In this document: positions 1-41,423 of the stretch, one piece after another | Numbering within the stretch: position 1 is the stretch's first letter | Layout of the letters: the number at the start of each line of letters is the position of its first letter | NCBI RefSeq assembly: GCF_988243305.1 | Contig: NZ_OZ547136.1 | DNA length: 64,000 bases | Strand: one strand, 5' to 3' | Made by a program: the position numbers and the translations under genes | The notes under the pieces: generated by a model | Seen by the model: the letters and a program-made list of their open reading frames with translations, nothing else | Database searches by the model: none | What the model was told of the DNA's origin: nothing

Positions 1-415
1 AGCGACAATCAATGCTCTGACACCAGTGCTGTGTGGATGGATAAGCTACTTCAGGCTGACGGAAGTCAGAGGAGTGCTGGAGGAGCTGGATGGCTGGATC
101 AAACGGAAACTGCGTTGCTTGTTGTAGCGGCAGTGGAAGAGACCGCTAACCCGGGCAAAGAACCTGCAAAGAGCAGGACTGAGTAAGGACAGGGCAATGA
201 TCTCTGCGTACAACAACCACGGGCCATGGTGGAACTCAGGGTCAAGCCATATGAATCAGGCGATAAAGAATACATGGTTCAGGAGGCAGGGTCTGATATC
301 ACTGCTGGAACAGTAGAGGCAGTTCCAGAGTTAACATGAACCGCCGTATGCGGAACCGCACGTACGGTGGTGTGAGAGGACGGCGGGAGTGATCCCGCCT
401 CCTACTCGATCAATT
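1..415 (+). mobile_element. Group II intron, 3' portion (end of intron-encoded protein ORF plus probable domains V-VI)
   Basis: Frame 2 reads ...CGWISYFRLTEVRGVLEELDGWIKRKLRCLL, then after a TAG RQWKRPLTRAKNL..., typical of a group II intron RT/maturase C-terminus; hairpin ccgtatgcgg/ccgcacgtacgg near 340-375 resembles domain V. Window starts inside the element; 3' boundary approximate. Confidence 0.55.
2..315 (+). pseudogene. Group II intron RT/maturase, C-terminal fragment interrupted by an in-frame TAG at 125-127
   Basis: Same reading frame continues across the TAG with maturase-like sequence (RQWKRP...); no database check. Confidence 0.5.
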
Positions 416-464
416 TTAAAACACCTCCTATGTAGGTGGTGATCGTTCATGTGGGGCTTTCTGA

Positions 465-640
465 CAGACTGCCTCGTCATTCCATTCGTATCGCCAGTAA
501 CTGGCGTTTGTATTGTGGCAGTTCTGGTATACGTTTCCCTGTGTATCTGCACTGGTTCAGCAAGGTTTGAAAAGGAGTATCCCTTGCAAATAACCGAAGC
601 ATTACTTTCAGAGCCGGAGCTGTTTTTGTTGCTGTGATCC
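465..640. repeat. Copy A of a roughly 180-bp conserved non-coding element (inverted relative to copy B at 7836-8030)
   Basis: By-eye alignment of 465-640 with the reverse complement of 7836-8030 gives roughly 75-80 percent identity, including shared blocks ggtttgaaaagga, gcaaataaccgaagc and ttcagagccgg. Confidence 0.5.
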
Positions 641-676
641 ATTTCAATTTTTTCGTGACAAATTATTTATAAATAT

Positions 677-1939
677 ATGATTATGTTTTTAAAAATGCAG
701 GCTGAAAGTATGAAGAATAAATACAAATTAAATGAGTTTTTGGATGTAAAACGCCTTCAGACCCTGCAGGACAACTTTTCAAAATCAATGATGATCGCGC
801 TCGTGGTTGTGGATGAGAATGGTATCCCGGTCACTAAGCCCAGCGGTTTTTCAGACTTCTGCATGCGTTCGCGTCTCAACCCGACACTGGCGCACCACTG
901 TTATGAAAGCGACAACGCTGGTGGCCGGGCCGCGATGCACGCTCGCAAACCGGTGGTTTATCGCTGCCACTGCGGTTTTGTCGAATTCGCTGTCCCAATC
1001 ATGATTAACGATCATTATCTCGGTGCTTTTATTTCCGGTCAGGTAAAAGTCGAAGAAGAGAAAGAACAGAGCATTTCCTATATTCTGAATAATAATGACG
1101 TCTGGAAAGATAATCCTTGGTTAATTAATTTGCACCAGAATACACGTCGCATGCCGTATGAGCGTTTTGAGTCTACTGCCTCGACGTTACTACACGTATC
1201 GTCTTATCTGGTCGAACAAGCGCACACCAATAATATCCAACGCGAACTTCGTAAAAAGGATCTTGCACTGGCTAATGAGTTAAGAAAACGTGTAGAGATA
1301 GAACGCTCACTACATGAAGCTGAATTTAAAGCGCTCTCTTATCAGATAAATCCGCACTTTTTATTTAACGTATTAAATACCATTGGCCGGTTAGCTTTTC
1401 TTGAAGATGCGCAGCGTACCGAAACAATGGTGCACGATTTCTCTGACATGATGCGCTATTTGTTACGTAAAAATAGTCACGGCCTGATTACTCTGCGTAA
1501 TGAAATAAATTACGTCAACAACTATATGTCGATCCAAAAAGTGCGTATGAGAGACCGTTTCGATTACCTGTGCGATATCCCGGAAAAATATCTGGATGTA
1601 GTCTGCCCGTTTTTGATCCTGCAACCGCTGGTGGAAAACTTCTTTAACTACGTAGTGGAGCCAAGGGATAGCAATAGTCATCTGCTGATCCGTGCCACGG
1701 ACGATGGCCTGAACGTGATTATTGAAGTCACTGACAATGGCGACGGCATCGCACCAGATACCATTAATCGCATTTTATCAGGCGACCAAAAATTGCAAAA
1801 AGGCAGTATTGGCATTAACAACATAAAAAATAGATTGAAGTTGTTATTTGGCGAGAGCTATGGCTTGGAAATAATGAGCCCTAACAAACCCAGGATGGGT
1901 ACAACCATTAAACTTCGGTTCCCAATGCAGGAAGCCTGA
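677..1939 (+). CDS. Cytoplasmic sensor histidine kinase with N-terminal PocR-type ligand-binding domain (LytS/YesM-type kinase core)
   Basis: 420 aa ORF; Cys/His-rich PocR-like N-terminus (CYESDNAGG...[14 protein letters not shown]), H-box NPHFLFN, C-terminal HATPase-like region; low GC. Confidence 0.7.
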
Positions 1940-7838: not shown

Positions 7839-7863
7839 AACGCCGGATGTCTCCCGGCTCTGA
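7573..7863 (+). pseudogene. IS2 orfA (InsC) truncated, with a foreign 9-codon tail
   Basis: [56 protein letters not shown]... is IS2 InsC-like; the C-terminal residues do not continue as IS2. Confidence 0.7.
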
Positions 7864-8030
7864 AATTAAGGCTTCGGTTATTTGCACGAAATGTTCCTTT
7901 TCAAACCCTGTTGAATTTTGTTAAGCCGGTGCAGACACACGGAAAACGCACATCAACACCGGACGGTACGATACAAACACCAGTGACTGGCGGGACGAAG
8001 GGAATGACGAATCAGTCAGGAAATGATGAC
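7836..8030. repeat. Copy B of the roughly 180-bp conserved non-coding element (inverted relative to copy A)
   Basis: See copy A; lies between the IS2 truncation point and the small ORF/alpA. Confidence 0.5.
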
Positions 8031-27597: not shown

Positions 27598-28923
27598 CTG
27601 ATGAATCCCCTAATGATTTTTATCAAAATCATTAAGTTAAGGTAGATACACATCTTGTCATATGATCAAATGGTTTCGCCAAAAATCAATAATCAGACAA
27701 CAAGATGTGCGAACTCGATATTTTACACGACTCTCTTTACCAATTCTGCCCCGAATTACACTTAAAACGACTCAACAGCTTAACGTTGGCTTGCCACGCA
27801 TTACTTGACTGTAAAACTCTCACTCTTACCGAACTTGGCCGTAACCTGCCAACCAAAGCGAGAACAAAACATAACATCAAACGAATCGACCGATTGTTAG
27901 GTAATCGTCACCTCCACAAAGAGCGACTCGCTGTATACCGTTGGCATGCTAGCTTTATCTGTTCGGGCAATACGATGCCCATTGTACTTGTTGACTGGTC
28001 TGATATTCGTGAGCAAAAACGACTTATGGTATTGCGAGCTTCAGTCGCACTACACGGTCGTTCTGTTACTCTTTATGAGAAAGCGTTCCCGCTTTCAGAG
28101 CAATGTTCAAAGAAAGCTCATGACCAATTTCTAGCCGACCTTGCGAGCATTCTACCGAGTAACACCACACCGCTCATTGTCAGTGATGCTGGCTTTAAAG
28201 TGCCATGGTATAAATCCGTTGAGAAGCTGGGTTGGTACTGGTTAAGTCGAGTAAGAGGAAAAGTACAATATGCAGACCTAGGAGCGGAAAACTGGAAACC
28301 TATCAGCAACTTACATGATATGTCATCTAGTCACTCAAAGACTTTAGGCTATAAGAGGCTGACTAAAAGCAATCCAATCTCATGCCAAATTCTATTGTAT
28401 AAATCTCGCTCTAAAGGCCGAAAAAATCAGCGCTCGACACGGACTCATTGTCACCACCCGTCACCTAAAATCTACTCAGCGTCGGCAAAGGAGCCATGGG
28501 TTCTAGCAACTAACTTACCTGTTGAAATTCGAACACCCAAACAACTTGTTAATATCTATTCGAAGCGAATGCAGATTGAAGAAACCTTCCGAGACTTGAA
28601 AAGTCCTGCCTACGGACTAGGCCTACGCCATAGCCGAACGAGCAGCTCAGAGCGTTTTGATATCATGCTGCTAATCGCCCTGATGCTTCAACTAACATGT
28701 TGGCTTGCGGGCGTTCATGCTCAGAAACAAGGTTGGGACAAGCACTTCCAGGCTAACACAGTCAGAAATCGAAACGTACTCTCAACAGTTCGCTTAGGCA
28801 TGGAAGTTTTGCGGCATTCTGGCTACACAATAACAAGGGAAGACTTACTCGTGGCTGCAACCCTACTAGCTCAAAATTTATTCACACATGGTTACGCTTT
28901 GGGGAAATTATGAGGGGATCTCC

Positions 28924-28926
<3 letters not shown>
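27598..28926 (+). mobile_element. IS10-left
   Basis: IS10 outside end and 402-aa transposase; the last few bases of the inside end differ from the canonical terminus. Confidence 0.85.
27705..28913 (+). CDS. IS10 transposase (IS4 family)
   Basis: 402 aa MCELDILHDSLYQFCPELHLKRLNSLTLACHALLDC... Confidence 0.9.
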   Translation: MCELDILHDSLYQFCPELHLKRLNSLTLACHALLDCKTLTLTELGRNLPTKARTKHNIKRIDRLLGNRHLHKERLAVYRWHASFICSGNTMPIVLVDWSDIREQKRLMVLRASVALHGRSVTLYEKAFPLSEQCSKKAHDQFLADLASILPSNTTPLIVSDAGFKVPWYKSVEKLGWYWLSRVRGKVQYADLGAENWKPISNLHDMSSSHSKTLGYKRLTKSNPISCQILLYKSRSKGRKNQRSTRTHCHHPSPKIYSASAKEPWVLATNLPVEIRTPKQLVNIYSKRMQIEETFRDLKSPAYGLGLRHSRTSSSERFDIMLLIALMLQLTCWLAGVHAQKQGWDKHFQANTVRNRNVLSTVRLGMEVLRHSGYTITREDLLVAATLLAQNLFTHGYALGKL

Positions 28927-29926
<1,000 letters not shown>

Positions 29927-29941
29927 CTAATTTTTGTTGAC

Positions 29942-29991
29942 ACTCTATCATTGATAGAGTTATTTTACCACTCCCTATCAGTGATAGAGAA
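29942..29991. promoter_or_regulatory. tet operators O1/O2 in the divergent tetR-tetA promoter region
   Basis: Palindromes actctatcattgatagagt and tccctatcagtgatagaga between tetR and tetA. Confidence 0.9.
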
Positions 29992-29998
29992 AAGTGAA

Positions 29999-31204
29999 AT
30001 GAATAGTTCGACAAAGATCGCATTGGTAATTACGTTACTCGATGCCATGGGGATTGGCCTTATCATGCCAGTCTTGCCAACGTTATTACGTGAATTTATT
30101 GCTTCGGAAGATATCGCTAACCACTTTGGCGTATTGCTTGCACTTTATGCGTTAATGCAGGTTATCTTTGCTCCTTGGCTTGGAAAAATGTCTGACCGAT
30201 TTGGTCGGCGCCCAGTGCTGTTGTTGTCATTAATAGGCGCATCGCTGGATTACTTATTGCTGGCTTTTTCAAGTGCGCTTTGGATGCTGTATTTAGGCCG
30301 TTTGCTTTCAGGGATCACAGGAGCTACTGGGGCTGTCGCGGCATCGGTCATTGCCGATACCACCTCAGCTTCTCAACGCGTGAAGTGGTTCGGTTGGTTA
30401 GGGGCAAGTTTTGGGCTTGGTTTAATAGCGGGGCCTATTATTGGTGGTTTTGCAGGAGAGATTTCACCGCATAGTCCCTTTTTTATCGCTGCGTTGCTAA
30501 ATATTGTCGCTTTCCTTGTGGTTATGTTTTGGTTCCGTGAAACCAAAAATACACGTGATAATACAGATACCGAAGTAGGGGTTGAGACGCAATCGAATTC
30601 GGTATACATCACTTTATTTAAAACGATGCCCATTTTGTTGATTATTTATTTTTCAGCGCAATTGATAGGCCAAATTCCCGCAACGGTGTGGGTGCTATTT
30701 ACCGAAAATCGTTTTGGATGGAATAGCATGATGGTTGGCTTTTCATTAGCGGGTCTTGGTCTTTTACACTCAGTATTCCAAGCCTTTGTGGCAGGAAGAA
30801 TAGCCACTAAATGGGGCGAAAAAACGGCAGTACTGCTCGGATTTATTGCAGATAGTAGTGCATTTGCCTTTTTAGCGTTTATATCTGAAGGTTGGTTAGT
30901 TTTCCCTGTTTTAATTTTATTGGCTGGTGGTGGGATCGCTTTACCTGCATTACAGGGAGTGATGTCTATCCAAACAAAGAGTCATCAGCAAGGTGCTTTA
31001 CAGGGATTATTGGTGAGCCTTACCAATGCAACCGGTGTTATTGGCCCATTACTGTTTGCTGTTATTTATAATCATTCACTACCAATTTGGGATGGCTGGA
31101 TTTGGATTATTGGTTTAGCGTTTTACTGTATTATTATCCTGCTATCGATGACCTTCATGTTAACCCCTCAAGCTCAGGGGAGTAAACAGGAGACAAGTGC
31201 TTAG
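29999..31204 (+). CDS. tetA: Tetracycline efflux MFS transporter TetA (class B)
   Basis: 401 aa from MNSSTKIALVITLLDAMGIGLIMPVLPTLLREF... Confidence 0.95.
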   Translation: MNSSTKIALVITLLDAMGIGLIMPVLPTLLREFIASEDIANHFGVLLALYALMQVIFAPWLGKMSDRFGRRPVLLLSLIGASLDYLLLAFSSALWMLYLGRLLSGITGATGAVAASVIADTTSASQRVKWFGWLGASFGLGLIAGPIIGGFAGEISPHSPFFIAALLNIVAFLVVMFWFRETKNTRDNTDTEVGVETQSNSVYITLFKTMPILLIIYFSAQLIGQIPATVWVLFTENRFGWNSMMVGFSLAGLGLLHSVFQAFVAGRIATKWGEKTAVLLGFIADSSAFAFLAFISEGWLVFPVLILLAGGGIALPALQGVMSIQTKSHQQGALQGLLVSLTNATGVIGPLLFAVIYNHSLPIWDGWIWIIGLAFYCIIILLSMTFMLTPQAQGSKQETSA

Positions 31205-31316
31205 TTATTTCGTCACCAAATGATGTTATTCCGCGAAATATAATGACCCTCTTGATAACCCAAGAGGGCATTTTTTACGATAAAGAAGATTTAGCTTCAA
31301 ATAAAACCTATCTATT

Positions 31317-31910
31317 TTATTTATCTTTCAAGCTCAATAAAAAGCCGCGGTAAATAGCAATAAATTGGCCTTTTTTATCGGCAAGCTCTTTTAGGTTTTT
31401 CGCATGTATTGCGATATGCATAAACCAGCCATTGAGTAAGTTTTTAAGCACATCATCATCATAAGCTTTAAGTTGGTTCTCTTGGATCAATTTGCTGACA
31501 ATGGCGTTTACCTTACCAGTAATGTATTCAAGGCTAATTTTTTCAAGTTCATTCCAACCAATGATAGGCATCACTTCTTGGATAGGGATAAGGTTTTTAT
31601 TATTATCAATAATATAATCAAGATAATGTTCAAATATACTTTCTAAGGCAGACCAACCATTTGTTAAATCAGTTTTTGTTGTGATGTAGGCATCAATCAT
31701 AATTAATTGCTGCTTATAACAGGCACTGAGTAATTGTTTTTTATTTTTAAAGTGATGATAAAAGGCACCTTTGGTCACCAACGCTTTTCCCGAGATCTCA
31801 TCTATTGAAACAGCTTGATAGCCTTTTTCAACAAACAATATTCGTGCTGAGTTAACCAGTGATTGATAGGTACTCTTAAAATTTTCTTGTTGATGATTTT
31901 TATTTTCCAT
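31317..31910 (-). CDS. tetC: Tn10 TetC (TetR-like transcriptional regulator)
   Basis: 197 aa from MENKNHQQ; conserved position between tetA and tetD. Confidence 0.8.
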   Translation of the reverse strand: MENKNHQQENFKSTYQSLVNSARILFVEKGYQAVSIDEISGKALVTKGAFYHHFKNKKQLLSACYKQQLIMIDAYITTKTDLTNGWSALESIFEHYLDYIIDNNKNLIPIQEVMPIIGWNELEKISLEYITGKVNAIVSKLIQENQLKAYDDDVLKNLLNGWFMHIAIHAKNLKELADKKGQFIAIYRGFLLSLKDK

Positions 31911-31997
31911 GATAGATTTAAAATAACATACCGTCAGTATGTTTATGGTATCATGATGATGTGGTCGTGACAATCTTAAGAACATTTAGGTTATTTT

Positions 31998-32414
31998 ATG
32001 TATATTGAACAGCATTCTCGCTATCAAAATAAAGCTAATAACATCCAATTAAGATATGATGATAAGCAGTTTCATACAACGGTTATCAAAGATGTTCTAT
32101 TATGGATTGAACATAATTTAGATCAGTCTTTACTGCTTGATGATGTGGCGAATAAAGCGGGTTATACCAAGTGGTATTTTCAGCGGCTGTTCAAAAAAGT
32201 AACAGGGGTCACACTGGCTAGCTATATTCGTGCTCGTCGTTTGACGAAAGCGGCTGTTGAGTTGAGGTTGACGAAAAAAACTATCCTTGAGATCGCATTA
32301 AAATATCAATTTGATTCCCAACAATCTTTTACACGTCGATTTAAGTACATTTTTAAGGTTACACCAAGTTATTATCGGCGTAATAAATTATGGGAATTGG
32401 AGGCAATGCACTGA
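31998..32414 (+). CDS. tetD: Tn10 TetD (MarA/SoxS-like AraC-family regulator)
   Basis: 138 aa; two AraC HTH units; stop codon lies in the IS10-right inside end as in Tn10. Confidence 0.85.
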   Translation: MYIEQHSRYQNKANNIQLRYDDKQFHTTVIKDVLLWIEHNLDQSLLLDDVANKAGYTKWYFQRLFKKVTGVTLASYIRARRLTKAAVELRLTKKTILEIALKYQFDSQQSFTRRFKYIFKVTPSYYRRNKLWELEAMH

Positions 32415-32632
32415 GAGATCCCCTCATAATTTCCCCAAAGCGTAACCATGTGTGAATAAATTTTGAGCTAGTAGGGTTGCAGCCACGAGTAAGTCTTCCC
32501 TTGTTATTGTGTAGCCAGAATGCCGCAAAACTTCCATGCCTAAGCGAACTGTTGAGAGTACGTTTCGATTTCTGACTGTGAACCGCCCCGGGAATCCTGG
32601 AGACTAAACTTCCTGAGAAAGAGGTAAACAGG

Positions 32633-32959
32633 ATGACTAAAAATACTCGTTTTTCCCCCGAAGTCCGTCAACGGGCAGTCCGTATGGTTCTGGAAAGTCA
32701 GAGCGAATATGACTCACAATGGGCGACAATTTGTTCCATTGCTCCAAAGATTGGCTGTACGCCGGAGACTCTGCGTGTCTGGGTTCGCCAGCATGAGCGG
32801 GATACCGGGGGCGGTGATGGAGGGCTCACCACCGCTGAACGTCAGCGTCTGAAAGAGCTGGAACGTGAAAATCGTGAACTGCGCCGCAGTAACGATATCC
32901 TTCGCCAGGCTTCCGCTTATTTTGCGAAGGCGGAGTTCGACCGCCTCTGGAAAAAATGA
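32633..32959 (+). CDS. IS629-like OrfA (IS3-family transposase N-terminal protein)
   Basis: [60 protein letters not shown]... Confidence 0.8.
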
Positions 32960-33846
32960 TGCCACTGCTGGATAAGCTGCGTGAGCAGTACGGGGTCGGA
33001 CCGCTATGCAGCGAACTGCATATTGCCCCGTCAACGTATTACCACTGTCAGCAACAGCGACATCATCCGGATAAACGCAGTGCCCGTGCGCAGCGCGATG
33101 ACTGGCTGAAGAAAGAGATACAGCGCGTATACGATGAAAATCACAAGGTATACGGTGTGCGTAAAGTCTGGCGTCAGTTGTTACGGGAAGGTATCAGAGT
33201 GGCCAGATGCACTGTGGCACGTCTCATGGCGGTTATGGGACTTGCCGGTGTTCTCCGGGGTAAAAAGGTCCGTACGACCATCAGCCGGAAAGCCGTTGCC
33301 GCAGGCGACCGCGTAAACCGTCAGTTCGTGGCAGAACGACCTGACCAGCTGTGGGTGGCTGATTTTACTTACGTCAGCACATGGCGGGGCTTCGTCTATG
33401 TGGCGTTCATCATTGATGTGTTTGCCGGATACATCGTGGGGTGGCGGGTCTCATCGTCCATGGAAACGACATTCGTGCTGGATGCACTGGAGCAGGCGTT
33501 ATGGGCCCGTCGACCGTCCGGCACGGTCCATCACAGTGATAAAGGTTCTCAGTATGTATCGCTGGCCTACACACAGCGGCTTAAGGAAGCCGGATTACTG
33601 GCATCAACAGGAAGTACAGGCGACTCGTATGACAACGCGATGGCGGAGAGCATCAATGGTCTTTACAAAGCGGAGGTAATACACCGTAAGAGCTGGAAAA
33701 ACCGTGCAGAAGTGGAACTGGCCACACTCACGTGGGTGGACTGGTATAACAATCGACGATTGCTGGAAAGGCTGGGCCATACTCCTCCGGCAGAAGCAGA
33801 AAAAGCTTATTATGCTTCCATCGGAAACGATGATCTGGCAGCCTGA
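32956..33846 (+). CDS. IS629-like OrfB (DDE integrase/transposase core; normally expressed as OrfAB by -1 frameshift)
   Basis: 296 aa with DDE-type core (…WVADFTYV…HHSDKGSQY…DNAMAES…). Confidence 0.8.
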
Positions 33847-34945
33847 GTTCACAGATAAAACACTCTCCAGGAAACCCGGGGCGGTTCACTGTGTTAGCCT
33901 GGAAGTGCTTGTCCCAACCTTGTTTCTGAGCATGAACGCCCGCAAGCCAACATGTTAGTTGAAGCATCAGGGCGATTAGCAGCATGATATCAAAACGCTC
34001 TGAGCTGCTCGTTCGGCTATGGCGTAGGCCTAGTCCGTAGGCAGGACTTTTCAAGTCTCGGAAGGTTTCTTCAATCTGCATTCGCTTCGAATAGATATTA
34101 ACAAGTTGTTTGGGTGTTCGAATTTCAACAGGTAAGTTAGTTGCTAGAACCCATGGCTCCTTTGCCGACGCTGAGTAGATTTTAGGTGACGGGTGGTGAC
34201 AATGAGTCCGTGTCGAGCGCTGATTTTTTCGGCCTTTAGAGCGAGATTTATACAATAGAATTTGGCATGAGATTGGATTGCTTTTAGTCAGCCTCTTATA
34301 GCCTAAAGTCTTTGAGTGACTAGATGACATATCATGTAAGTTGCTGATAGGTTTCCAGTTTTCCGCTCCTAGGTCTGCATATTGTACTTTTCCTCTTACT
34401 CGACTTAACCAGTACCAACCCAGCTTCTCAACGGATTTATACCATGGCACTTTAAAGCCAGCATCACTGACAATGAGCGGTGTGGTGTTACTCGGTAGAA
34501 TGCTCGCAAGGTCGGCTAGAAATTGGTCATGAGCTTTCTTTGAACATTGCTCTGAAAGCGGGAACGCTTTCTCATAAAGAGTAACAGAACGACCGTGTAG
34601 TGCGACTGAAGCTCGCAATACCATAAGTCGTTTTTGCTCACGAATATCAGACCAGTCAACAAGTACAATGGGCATCGTATTGCCCGAACAGATAAAGCTA
34701 GCATGCCAACGGTATACAGCGAGTCGCTCTTTGTGGAGGTGACGATTACCTAACAATCGGTCGATTCGTTTGATGTTATGTTTTGTTCTCGCTTTGGTTG
34801 GCAGGTTACGGCCAAGTTCGGTAAGAGTGAGAGTTTTACAGTCAAGTAATGCGTGGCAAGCCAACGTTAAGCTGTTGAGTCGTTTTAAGTGTAATTCGGG
34901 GCAGAATTGGTAAAGAGAGTCGTGTAAAATATCGAGTTCGCACAT
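33728..34945 (-). pseudogene. IS10-right transposase, C-terminus replaced by read-through into IS629
   Basis: Identical to the IS10-left transposase for about 350 residues, then diverges (…ANTVNRPGFPGECF…) at the IS629 junction. Confidence 0.8.
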
Positions 34946-35113
34946 CTTGTTGTCTGATTATTGATTTTTGGCGAAACCATTTGATCATATGACAAGATGT
35001 GTATCTACCTTAACTTAATGATTTTTACCAAAATCATTAGGGGATTCATCAGCCCGCAGCAACTACAGAACGGTAAATAACATTACCCGGGGGAAGCATC
35101 CGGAGGCGAAACA

Positions 35114-39434: not shown

Positions 39435-40036
39435 GATAATTGCGGCCCGCGTAACAACCAGATGCGTTCAATTTCGCCCCATTGCAGCGAATGCAGGGTT
39501 ATGCGTACCGCCACGGGGATCGCCTGTACTGACGACCAGCTCTCCTGCCAGCGCGTGCCGTCGTAGAACTGCAAACGGAGCGAATCCGCCGGAATCAACT
39601 TTTGCATTGTCGGCTTCACGCTGCCTGCTGCGTCGGTCAGCGGCCAGGCTAACCGTTCGAGATAACCGTCATGAATGCGGTAACCGACGGTGAGCAGATT
39701 ACTGCGCGGCAGACGCATCAACGGATTAACCACACCGCCGCGCACAAAGCGCATCCCTTCACTCTCAGACGCCAGTACGCCAGCGCCCGCCAGTAACGCT
39801 GGTTCACGCTGGCCCTGATTGCCTCTTACCGGACGCGGCATCATTTGTGTCAGATCGTGGGTCAGAAAACTCATCGTTTGCTGCATGAGGTTTAGTTTTT
39901 GATCGTGTCCGGCGACGGCGCTATTCACGCGTGTGACGCCGTTAGTCACCTGCTGCGCCATCAGTGCCAGCGAGGCAAAAATGGCAATTGCCACCAGCAT
40001 TTCCAGTAACGTGAAACCAGCGCGAGCCCTTCTCAC
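39431..40036 (-). CDS. gspJ: T2SS minor pseudopilin GspJ
   Basis: 201 aa; prepilin-type N-terminus AGFTLLEMLVAIAIF. Confidence 0.8.
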   Translation of the reverse strand: MRRARAGFTLLEMLVAIAIFASLALMAQQVTNGVTRVNSAVAGHDQKLNLMQQTMSFLTHDLTQMMPRPVRGNQGQREPALLAGAGVLASESEGMRFVRGGVVNPLMRLPRSNLLTVGYRIHDGYLERLAWPLTDAAGSVKPTMQKLIPADSLRLQFYDGTRWQESWSSVQAIPVAVRITLHSLQWGEIERIWLLRGPQLS

Positions 40037-40404
40037 TGTTGGCCTCCCACGGCGCTAAACCAGGCGCGTCGTGACTGAATAACCGGCGAAAAATCTTCGT
40101 GACGGCTGACTTCAATATCCACCGCCTGAAGTAGCGCGTTACCTGTATTCAGCGGTGTGGTTCGCCAGTACCAGCGGCTTCCTGCCATATCGCTCTCGCC
40201 CTGATGGCTGACCGCCCGCTGCTCGCGGGTCATCAGGTAGAGCAGCGCGGTCTGGTTTTCAGCCACCCACCCCGCTACCGTTTTTTCCTCAAGAACGTGC
40301 TGATTACTCAGCGCGCCGCTGGCAATCTGTAACACCGCCGTGGCAGCCAGCGCAAAAATCGCCAGCGCGAGCATCACTTCCAGCAAGGTAAATCCACGCT
40401 TCAT
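40033..40404 (-). CDS. gspI: T2SS minor pseudopilin GspI
   Basis: 123 aa; MKRGFTLLEVMLALAIF. Confidence 0.8.
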   Translation of the reverse strand: MKRGFTLLEVMLALAIFALAATAVLQIASGALSNQHVLEEKTVAGWVAENQTALLYLMTREQRAVSHQGESDMAGSRWYWRTTPLNTGNALLQAVDIEVSRHEDFSPVIQSRRAWFSAVGGQQ

Positions 40405-40964
40405 GGCATCCTCTCATCACATTGACTGAGGGATAACGCGCCATCGTGTGCCAGTTTTACCGCCCAACATGCGTTTTGCGCCGCCGAGTAGAAGCGCAGC
40501 GTAAACGGCGTGGCGGGTTCAAAAGGCGAAAAACGGATCTGCGGCGTCTTCTTTTTCGCCTCTTTTTGCAGCTCCAGTTCAATATCGTGCAGCGTCAGGC
40601 GACGACGCTGCAGTTCCAGCGCATACTCCTTCTGCCAGATATCACTGCCGGGTTGTAACAGCATCTGCACCTGTTTTGGCACCGTAACCTGTGCCGATAA
40701 GCGGGTCGCAGAAACGGGCAACCACTGCCCGTGACGACGCTGCATAAACTGATAGCCAGGAGGATCGATTAGTACACCGAGTGTTTGCCCTTCGATCACT
40801 GCCCTGTCCTTAAACTGCGCAAAGCGAGTCAGAAAATCCTGCGCCACTTTTTTCGCAGGCGGCTCTGAAGCGGTCGCAAACGTCTGTACCACGCCCGCAC
40901 TGGCAAGGCCGATAAGGAAAATCACCAGCATGATTTCCAGAAGTGTGAATCCGCGTTCAGGCAC
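40401..40964 (-). CDS. gspH: T2SS minor pseudopilin GspH
   Basis: 187 aa; ERGFTLLEIMLVIFLIGL. Confidence 0.8.
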   Translation of the reverse strand: MPERGFTLLEIMLVIFLIGLASAGVVQTFATASEPPAKKVAQDFLTRFAQFKDRAVIEGQTLGVLIDPPGYQFMQRRHGQWLPVSATRLSAQVTVPKQVQMLLQPGSDIWQKEYALELQRRRLTLHDIELELQKEAKKKTPQIRFSPFEPATPFTLRFYSAAQNACWAVKLAHDGALSLSQCDERMP

Positions 40965-40967
40965 TGA

Positions 40968-41423
40968 TTACTGAAACTCCTGCAAATTCCAGTTACCGAT
41001 ATCTGCGCCAGCGCCCTCCCCGTTTTCCTGACCATCTGCCCCCAGGGTATAAACATCAAACAGCCCTTTTTCACCCGGGCTGAGATACTGATAATCATTG
41101 CCCCACGGATCTTTTGGCAGTCGTTTAATGTATCCACCAGTACGGTAGTTGCGGGAGTCCGCCATATTGGCCGGTTGCTGGATCAGCGCCTCCAGCCCCT
41201 GTTCTGTGGTCGGATAACGCCCGTTATCCAGTCGGTACATATCCAGCGCGTTCTCCAGCGCCACGATATCGCTGATGGCTTTTTGCCGATCCGCTTTCTC
41301 TTTATTGCCCAACAGGTTAGGCACCACCAGACTTGCCAGGACGCCAAGAATAACAATCACCACCATCACTTCCAGCAGGGTAAAACCTGCCCGTGGTTTT
41401 TGTGTGCGGGATAACGAATTCAT
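40968..41423 (-). CDS. gspG: T2SS major pseudopilin GspG
   Basis: Start trimmed to MNSLSRTQKPRAGFTLLEVMVVIVILGVLASLVVPN with RBS ggag; 151 aa. Confidence 0.85.
   Translation of the reverse strand: MNSLSRTQKPRAGFTLLEVMVVIVILGVLASLVVPNLLGNKEKADRQKAISDIVALENALDMYRLDNGRYPTTEQGLEALIQQPANMADSRNYRTGGYIKRLPKDPWGNDYQYLSPGEKGLFDVYTLGADGQENGEGAGADIGNWNLQEFQ

Follow-up and report, generated by a model that had tools for sequence, protein, structure and literature searches.

A very probable E.c.I6, a class C group II intron with a decayed reverse transcriptase gene, in the grp genomic island of Escherichia coli

Class C group II introns are described in PMC1702495 as able to self-splice in vitro. One such intron, which carries the Zimmerly-database name E.c.I6, was catalogued in E. 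coli by Leclercq and Cordaux (2012, PLoS One 7:e52268, PMC3522654, supplementary tables), who list copies of 1807 bp, assigned to class C and situated 'in PAI SelC-Island', in both CFT073 (E.c.I6-1a, NC_004431 4320108-4321914) and APEC O1 (E.c.I6-1b, NC_008563 4726907-4728713, minus strand). The ORF was recorded as disrupted in the E.c.I6 copies (n=4), which were suggested in the same study to have perhaps been acquired already inactivated. Both E.c.I6 and its disrupted ORF are, then, already known from the literature.

The window analysed here is a 64,000 nt stretch of contig NZ_OZ547136.1 (RefSeq assembly GCF_988243305.1), the first 410 nt of which are the final 410 nt of a group II intron. 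Domains V and VI were detected by the Rfam model RF00029 (Intron_gpII) at 339-410, with a score of 50.4 bits against a gathering threshold of 40 and an E value of 6e-7 for the whole window. The remainder of the element lies upstream of the window and was studied at a reference locus in NZ_CP029973.1 (L001), where 6000 is subtracted from each position to give that in the window (window 1-700 being L001 6001-6700). In that genome, a GUGCG start at L001 4604 is followed by matches to two models of domains I to IV, RF02001 (L001 4713-4882; 140.5 bits, gathering threshold 32) and RF01998 (L001 4917-5001; 73.8 bits, gathering threshold 35), and the reverse transcriptase (RT)/maturase reading frame extends from L001 5039 to 6316, between these matches and domain V. 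A sequence-only reading of the window had identified the 3' end of a group II intron, the rest of which should lie upstream; both points are borne out, although the feature had been drawn as 1-415, and so overshoots the end of the intron by five nucleotides.

The borders of the element are sharp, with homology between copies breaking exactly at both ends: all copies finish in CTACTCGAT and then diverge, and the 3' end of the intron, ...CUCGAU, places the 3' splice site between 410 and 411. These limits rest on the comparison of copies with one another and on the published coordinates, rather than on an unoccupied allele. On the 5' side, grpO extends to L001 4553, then comes AAAAAGCCAGCAG-TGTCTGC-CTGCTGGCTTTTTGTTAT, and directly after this the intron begins, just past the grpO terminator hairpin; on the 3' side, the border is 266 nt upstream of grpP. 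The insertion therefore lies between grpO and grpP in the grp genomic island, that of a glycyl-radical propanediol microcompartment, and the ligated-exon junction derived from the intron borders would be GGCTTTTTGTTAT joined to CAATTTTAAAAC. CFT073 and APEC O1 share the order grpO-intron-grpP, their introns having identities of, respectively, 99.9% and 99.1% with the window copy, and the match to the 3' exon in NC_008563 (4726557-4726908, minus strand) abuts the published E.c.I6-1b interval. Given this agreement in locus, interval and sequence, together with the published length of 1807 bp, the element is very probably E.c.I6, a bacterial class C (IIC) group II intron that is now an immobile fossil in the grp island. 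Its features are listed in Table 1.

Table 1. Features of the intron, its reading frame and its 3' flank. Positions are those of the window unless marked L001 (NZ_CP029973.1); IEP, intron-encoded protein.
Feature	Position	Strand	Remarks
Intron E.c.I6, entire	L001 4604-6410 (window -1396 to 410)	+	1807 nt
In-frame deletion of 87 bp between GCAGGCG repeats	after L001 5430		29 residues lost, including SYGFRPGR
Nonsense mutation, AGA to TGA, at Arg209	L001 5576		In-frame, 183 codons upstream of the TAG at 125-127
Substitution, CCG to CTG	L001 5648		Pro233Leu in the PQGG motif
Deletion of 6 bp	after L001 5827		Two residues lost
Tail of second IEP fragment, maturase (X/GIIM) domain	1-124	+	Annotated 'reverse transcriptase domain-containing protein', L001 5606-6127
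Amber TAG, ancestrally TGG	125-127	+	Trp394 of the intact relative; G-to-A at 126; cuts GIIM
Post-TAG IEP remnant	128-313	+	C-terminal region of group IIC reverse transcriptases
Second amber, CAG to TAG	314-316	+	Six codons ahead of the ancestral stop, TAA at 332-334
Domain V (CCGCCGUAUGCGGAACCGCACGUACGGUGG)	341-370	+	CGC at the position of the catalytic AGC triad; RF00029 alignment
Domain VI	373-410	+	Bulged A at 404, inferred branch point; structure line of RF00029 alignment
3' flank ('3' exon')	411-676	+	Non-coding spacer to annotated grpP start at 677
Copy of approximately 150 nt repeat	466-622	+	About 80% similar to the reverse complement of ~7854-8005; not part of intron or target

The CGC found at the triad position of domain V is typical of IIC introns, and the encoded protein points the same way. 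The 462 aa IEP of a related copy in NZ_CP023388.1 (L002) was compared with solved structures, and matched those of class IIC best: the GsI-IIC RT (6ar1) at 1e-138 over its full length, the E. rectale IIC RNP (7uim) at 3e-106 and the IIC maturases 5hhj and 5hhl at around 1e-84, as against 1e-42 for LtrA (IIA) and 5e-32 for a IIB maturase. This protein scores 402 bits with the NCBIfam model TIGR04416 (cut-off 300). Its only Pfam domains are RVT_1 (110-316) and GIIM (332-410), with no endonuclease (HNH) domain detected by Pfam, and the other 52 residues align to the C-terminus of the GsI-IIC RT.

Five independent insertion sites of the family were compared: the grpO terminator, the plasmid bcsB locus, two IS-rich chromosomal loci and that of a truncated relative (L011). 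A strong hairpin ends 0-8 nt before the splice site in all five, and the 5' exons terminate in TTAT, TTGT, GTAT, GTAT and TTAT. At four of the sites the 45 nt upstream fold with energies of -20 to -27 kcal/mol, when random 45-mers from the window average -7.9 kcal/mol (sd 4.1) and only 0.03-0.5% of them fold as well. The L011 site, CCCCTGTAAGTTTTTTACAGGGGTTTTTTTAT/GTGCG, is a textbook terminator, with an 8-bp stem followed by T7 and TTAT/GTGCG; its hairpin has an energy of -15.2 kcal/mol, the scoring against random controls having covered the other four sites. At grpO, the target reads ...GCCAGCAG-TGTCTGC-CTGCTGGCTTTTTGTTAT/GUGCG, and a consensus terminator scan left this hairpin uncalled on the plus strand, flagging it on the minus strand only; on the basis of its sequence and folding energy it is a putative terminator. 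Class C introns recognise their exons through EBS1 and EBS3, having no EBS2 and a short IBS1. The AUAA at L001 4862-4865 we take, by analogy, to be a candidate EBS1, although a 4-mer of this kind is expected by chance. Classes IIA and IIB were ruled out by the ranking of solved structures and the target-site pattern. Terminator targets, the ranking of IIC proteins, the lack of an endonuclease and the published table together assign E.c.I6 to class C, as judged from sequence comparison.

The coding part of the intron enters the window in frame 2 of the plus strand, where positions 2-316 translate as ATINALTPVLCGWISYFRLTEVRGVLEELDGWIKRKLRCLL, a stop at the TAG of 125-127, then RQWKRPLTRAKNL...LLEQ and a further stop; the residues immediately before the TAG are ...GWIKRKLRCLL. 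Pfam searches with the ORF fragments detected RVT_1 and GIIM, the latter being cut by the TAG at profile position 62 of 80. The 41 residues preceding the TAG are identical to the L002 protein at 39 positions, as are 58 of the 62 that follow it, and these 62, when searched alone, match residues 353-412 of the GsI-IIC RT (E value 1.3e-4). Random 62-codon frames in the window lack a stop in 19% of cases; the continuity of the frame across the TAG is real because it is homologous on both sides, and not because of its open length. The sequence-only reading was hence correct in regarding this as the frame of an intron-encoded RT/maturase that runs straight through the TAG. It had also concluded that the protein was either inactivated or in need of read-through, and of these two options only the first stands.

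The lesions in the reading frame were listed from DNA and protein alignments of the window copy with the 462 aa ltrA gene of L002, to which it is approximately 95% identical at the DNA level, and with six other copies. The codon at 125-127 is TGG in all five copies from outside the grp island and TAG in all three within it, so that the amber is missing from every non-grp relative. Were the TAG to be suppressed by a tRNA or bypassed by programmed recoding, a functional full-length maturase might be made, and the 62 open and homologous codons beyond it, along with the YADD active-site motif retained in the window copy, are what would be expected. However, recoding would call for one conserved stop within an ORF that is otherwise intact and under selection, whereas three nonsense codons and two deletions were found. 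With a TGA upstream and the SYGFRPGR motif of the RT deleted, suppression of the TAG would not restore a working protein, and the Pro233Leu change, the second amber, the four of 62 downstream residues that differ from L002 and the lack of any tRNA gene within the window also argue against read-through, which we regard as extremely improbable. The TAG is a plain inactivating mutation in a pseudogene and not a recoding signal.

The question of whether the TAG might be an error of sequencing or assembly, raised by the sequence-only reading, could be answered from the distribution of the sequence. That it involves just one base, TGG to TAG, is all that speaks for an artefact. Against this, the 30 complete E. 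coli genomes that match window 1-700 best, obtained from independent strains by independent laboratories, all agree with it at 100% identity, and 465 records reach at least 99%; the same TAG was seen directly in the CFT073 and APEC O1 copies. The mutation is genuine, with almost no chance left to an error.

The window, CFT073 and APEC O1 copies have in common the 87-bp deletion, the TGA, the Pro233Leu substitution, the 6-bp deletion and the TAG at 125-127, and hence these five ORF lesions predate the spread of the island. The amber at 314-316 is found in the window copy and CFT073; as the codon is CAG in APEC O1, and likewise in all non-grp copies, this mutation is younger than the others. E.c.I6 consequently lacks the intact, translatable IEP that is needed for mobility and for splicing in vivo, and its largest IEP fragment reaches 154 bits with TIGR04416, under the cut-off of 300. 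Substitutions specific to the grp lineage in the ORF comprise 13 that are synonymous and 14 that are non-synonymous, three of the latter being stops. The resulting pN/pS of 0.33, rather than a value of around 1, implies that part of the divergence accrued under selection on the ORF, and would be a mixture of earlier constraint and later drift.

In the ribozyme, the 94 nt 3' segment with domains V and VI has acquired no substitutions specific to the grp lineage. Across all ribozyme segments there are six such changes in 529 nt, against 27 in the 1278 nt ORF, a difference that is not significant (Fisher p = 0.18). The grp copies have also lost 19 nt (GCGCCGGGCATGGCGCGTA) directly after the 5' GUGCG (L001 4604-4625), a loss common to all three and so likewise older than the spread of the island. 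This segment is kept in L002 (1480-1520), in three further copies (L004, L007 and L008) and in the most diverged, L011 (~2478-2520), and thus the long form is ancestral; in minimum free energy folds of domain I, computed for both forms, the long one appears as a single extended hairpin. The segment nearly duplicates the 19 nt that come after it. The same loss is seen in the plasmid copy pSCLS1 (L003) but not in its same-locus relatives L007 and L008, suggesting either recurrent slippage or an assembly error.

The state of the ribozyme bears on the idea that only the protein gene is dead, with the RNA still self-splicing, or with a related copy in the same cell supplying in trans the maturase for its splicing or mobilisation. 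The intact domains V and VI, the strong scores of the D1-D4 models, the in vitro self-splicing of class C introns described in PMC1702495 and the presence in some genomes of up to five places matching the family could all be accommodated by such activity. However, the 19 nt after GUGCG are lost in the grp copies, the intron lies behind a terminator, where transcription should be low, and a fully intact IEP was found in none of the nine family copies inspected. Nor is there any sign of movement: the junction between the grpO terminator and the intron was found in 536 of 5426 complete E. coli genomes, a number close to the 548 records in which the intron is at least 99% identical, as is consistent with one immobile copy per island. 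An active ribozyme is accordingly judged unlikely, and an immobile fossil remains the preferred reading.

No empty site, searched for as joined exons (350 + 350 nt, at least 80% coverage), was found in the 5426 complete E. coli genomes. The exact 25-nt empty-site junction had no match in species-representative genomes or metagenome contigs, and the 3' exon alone had none in species-representative genomes. This constant presence might be taken to indicate that the host has put the decayed intron to use, for instance as a structured element that spaces or insulates the grp structural operon from grpPQ, and the lower number of lineage substitutions in the ribozyme would fit with such a role. Yet the difference in substitution density is the non-significant one given above, an island of single ancestry would be expected to carry the intron throughout, and the copy was perhaps inactivated before its arrival (Leclercq & Cordaux, PMC3522654); co-option is therefore thought very unlikely. 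Similarly slim is the chance that the intron, being present in every grp island seen and unchanged in domains V and VI, is retained for what its RNA or its position does for the host, such as residual hydrolytic self-splicing or a structured insulator that shapes read-through from the grp structural operon into the virulence-linked grpPQ two-component genes. GrpP and GrpQ are expressed and functional in CFT073 (PMC11724981), and hence the intron does not prevent their expression.

The proposal of the sequence-only reading that the 3' exon is the repeated island element is imprecise: the ~55 nt directly downstream of the splice site (411-465) occur only once in the window, and the repeat covers ~466-622. 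An inverted repeat (I3) links 556-617 with 7854-7915 at 85% identity, and pairwise alignment extends it to the limits in Table 1. The 62-nt core is found in further E. coli genomes too, where it is annotated as a 'hypothetical' or 'phage-derived' protein. Within the repeat is a terminator-like hairpin, CGCCAGTAACTGGCG then TTTGTATTGT (window 492-516), which from its sequence looks like an unoccupied class C homing site. The target determinant of E.c.I6 itself is the upstream grpO terminator and not this repeat.

The E.c.I6 family matches approximately 1600 places in E. coli. Among the nine inspected copies, that of L002 (1938-3326, annotated ltrA) is the only one with an uninterrupted 462 aa ORF; it has YADG in place of the catalytic YADD, and by this change its product is probably inactive too. 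The defects elsewhere are a split ORF in L004, a frameshift in L003, internal stops in L007 and L008 and a 29 aa deletion in L010. The last of these copies retains YADD, and its 29-codon (87-bp) in-frame deletion, located in the maturase domain and flanked by ALT...ALT repeats, is of the same size as that of the grp copy but unrelated to it. The lack of any fully intact IEP in the nine copies fits the extinction dynamics described in PMC3522654.

A history can be proposed that draws on the established biology of class C introns. An active ancestor would have recognised a terminator stem-loop and a short IBS1 (3-4 nt, here UUAU), the known class C mode, and reverse-spliced just downstream of the grpO terminator; as the IEP has no endonuclease domain, priming would presumably have been from nascent DNA at the replication fork. 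Such retrohoming we infer by analogy. The RT/maturase gene then decayed, through lesions that include the 87-bp deletion flanked by microhomology, five ORF lesions arising before the three grp copies diverged and the CAG-to-TAG change at 314-316 following later. Behind a terminator and ahead of grpP, the intron may rarely be transcribed and its splicing would not be needed by host genes, making it nearly neutral while it decayed in place, which would explain how it has hitch-hiked in every grp island seen.

The two short ORFs annotated as 'hypothetical protein' and 'reverse transcriptase domain' in hundreds of genomes are consequently fragments of a single pseudogene. The lesions that the grp copies have in common mark the island cleanly as one of single ancestry, within which the amber at 314-316 separates CFT073-type copies from the APEC O1-type copy, and the family in E. 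coli illustrates the extinction of a group II intron. Beyond such bookkeeping the significance is small, the intron having been catalogued, and its disrupted ORF published, previously.

Several other features of the window were observed. At 27598-35052, two inverted arms of 1165 nt, 100% complementary and each with an RNA-OUT match (IS10), flank around 5.1 kb that includes an IS3-type ALIL frameshift pseudoknot (32914-33030). Judging by a shift of ~7.5 kb in the positions of features, this ~7.4-kb block appears to be missing from the locus in NZ_CP029973.1, which otherwise matches, and it looks like a Tn10-like composite insertion specific to the lineage of this strain. At 39976-41387 a 43-nt motif occurs in four direct copies, which have 63-77% identity to the reference copy, are spaced by 377-557 nt and fall at the N-terminal ends of the minus-strand genes gspJ, gspI, gspH and gspG (from annotation shifted by ~7.46 kb); this position at the N-termini of pseudopilins indicates an ordinary, conserved prepilin N-terminal segment. 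The gspE gene of the reference strain is annotated with an internal stop. The C0719 sRNA (RF00117, 299 bits) was detected at 55481-55702, in the glcA-glcB spacer according to the reference annotation, and hence the window spans the grp island, a CP4-like island segment, the gsp/sslE type II secretion cluster and the core glc region.

In comparison with the published description of E.c.I6, the element is alike in length (1807 bp), locus, class, disrupted ORF and carriage on a genomic island; whilst the paper gives the ORF as disrupted only, the list of lesions, the 19-nt deletion and the relative age of the ambers are added here. The E.c.I6-like copies of ~1.9 kb, such as the ltrA-bearing one in NZ_CP023388.1 (WP_001608718.1) and those on plasmids by bcsB, have 93-96% DNA identity to it over the whole intron and similarly use terminator-type targets, yet (the pSCLS1 case above aside) they keep the 87 bp, the 6 bp, the 5' 19 nt and the Arg209 and Trp394 codons, and have separate defects of their own, in the form of YADG, a frameshift, an internal stop or a split ORF. 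Set beside the class C introns B.h.I1 of Bacillus halodurans, GsI-IIC and E. rectale IIC, which are active elements, E.c.I6 would be a pseudogene-bearing fossil, known here from its sequence, that nevertheless shares with them targets resembling terminator hairpins, a compact size of 1.8-1.9 kb, an RT and maturase without an endonuclease and the CGC of domain V.
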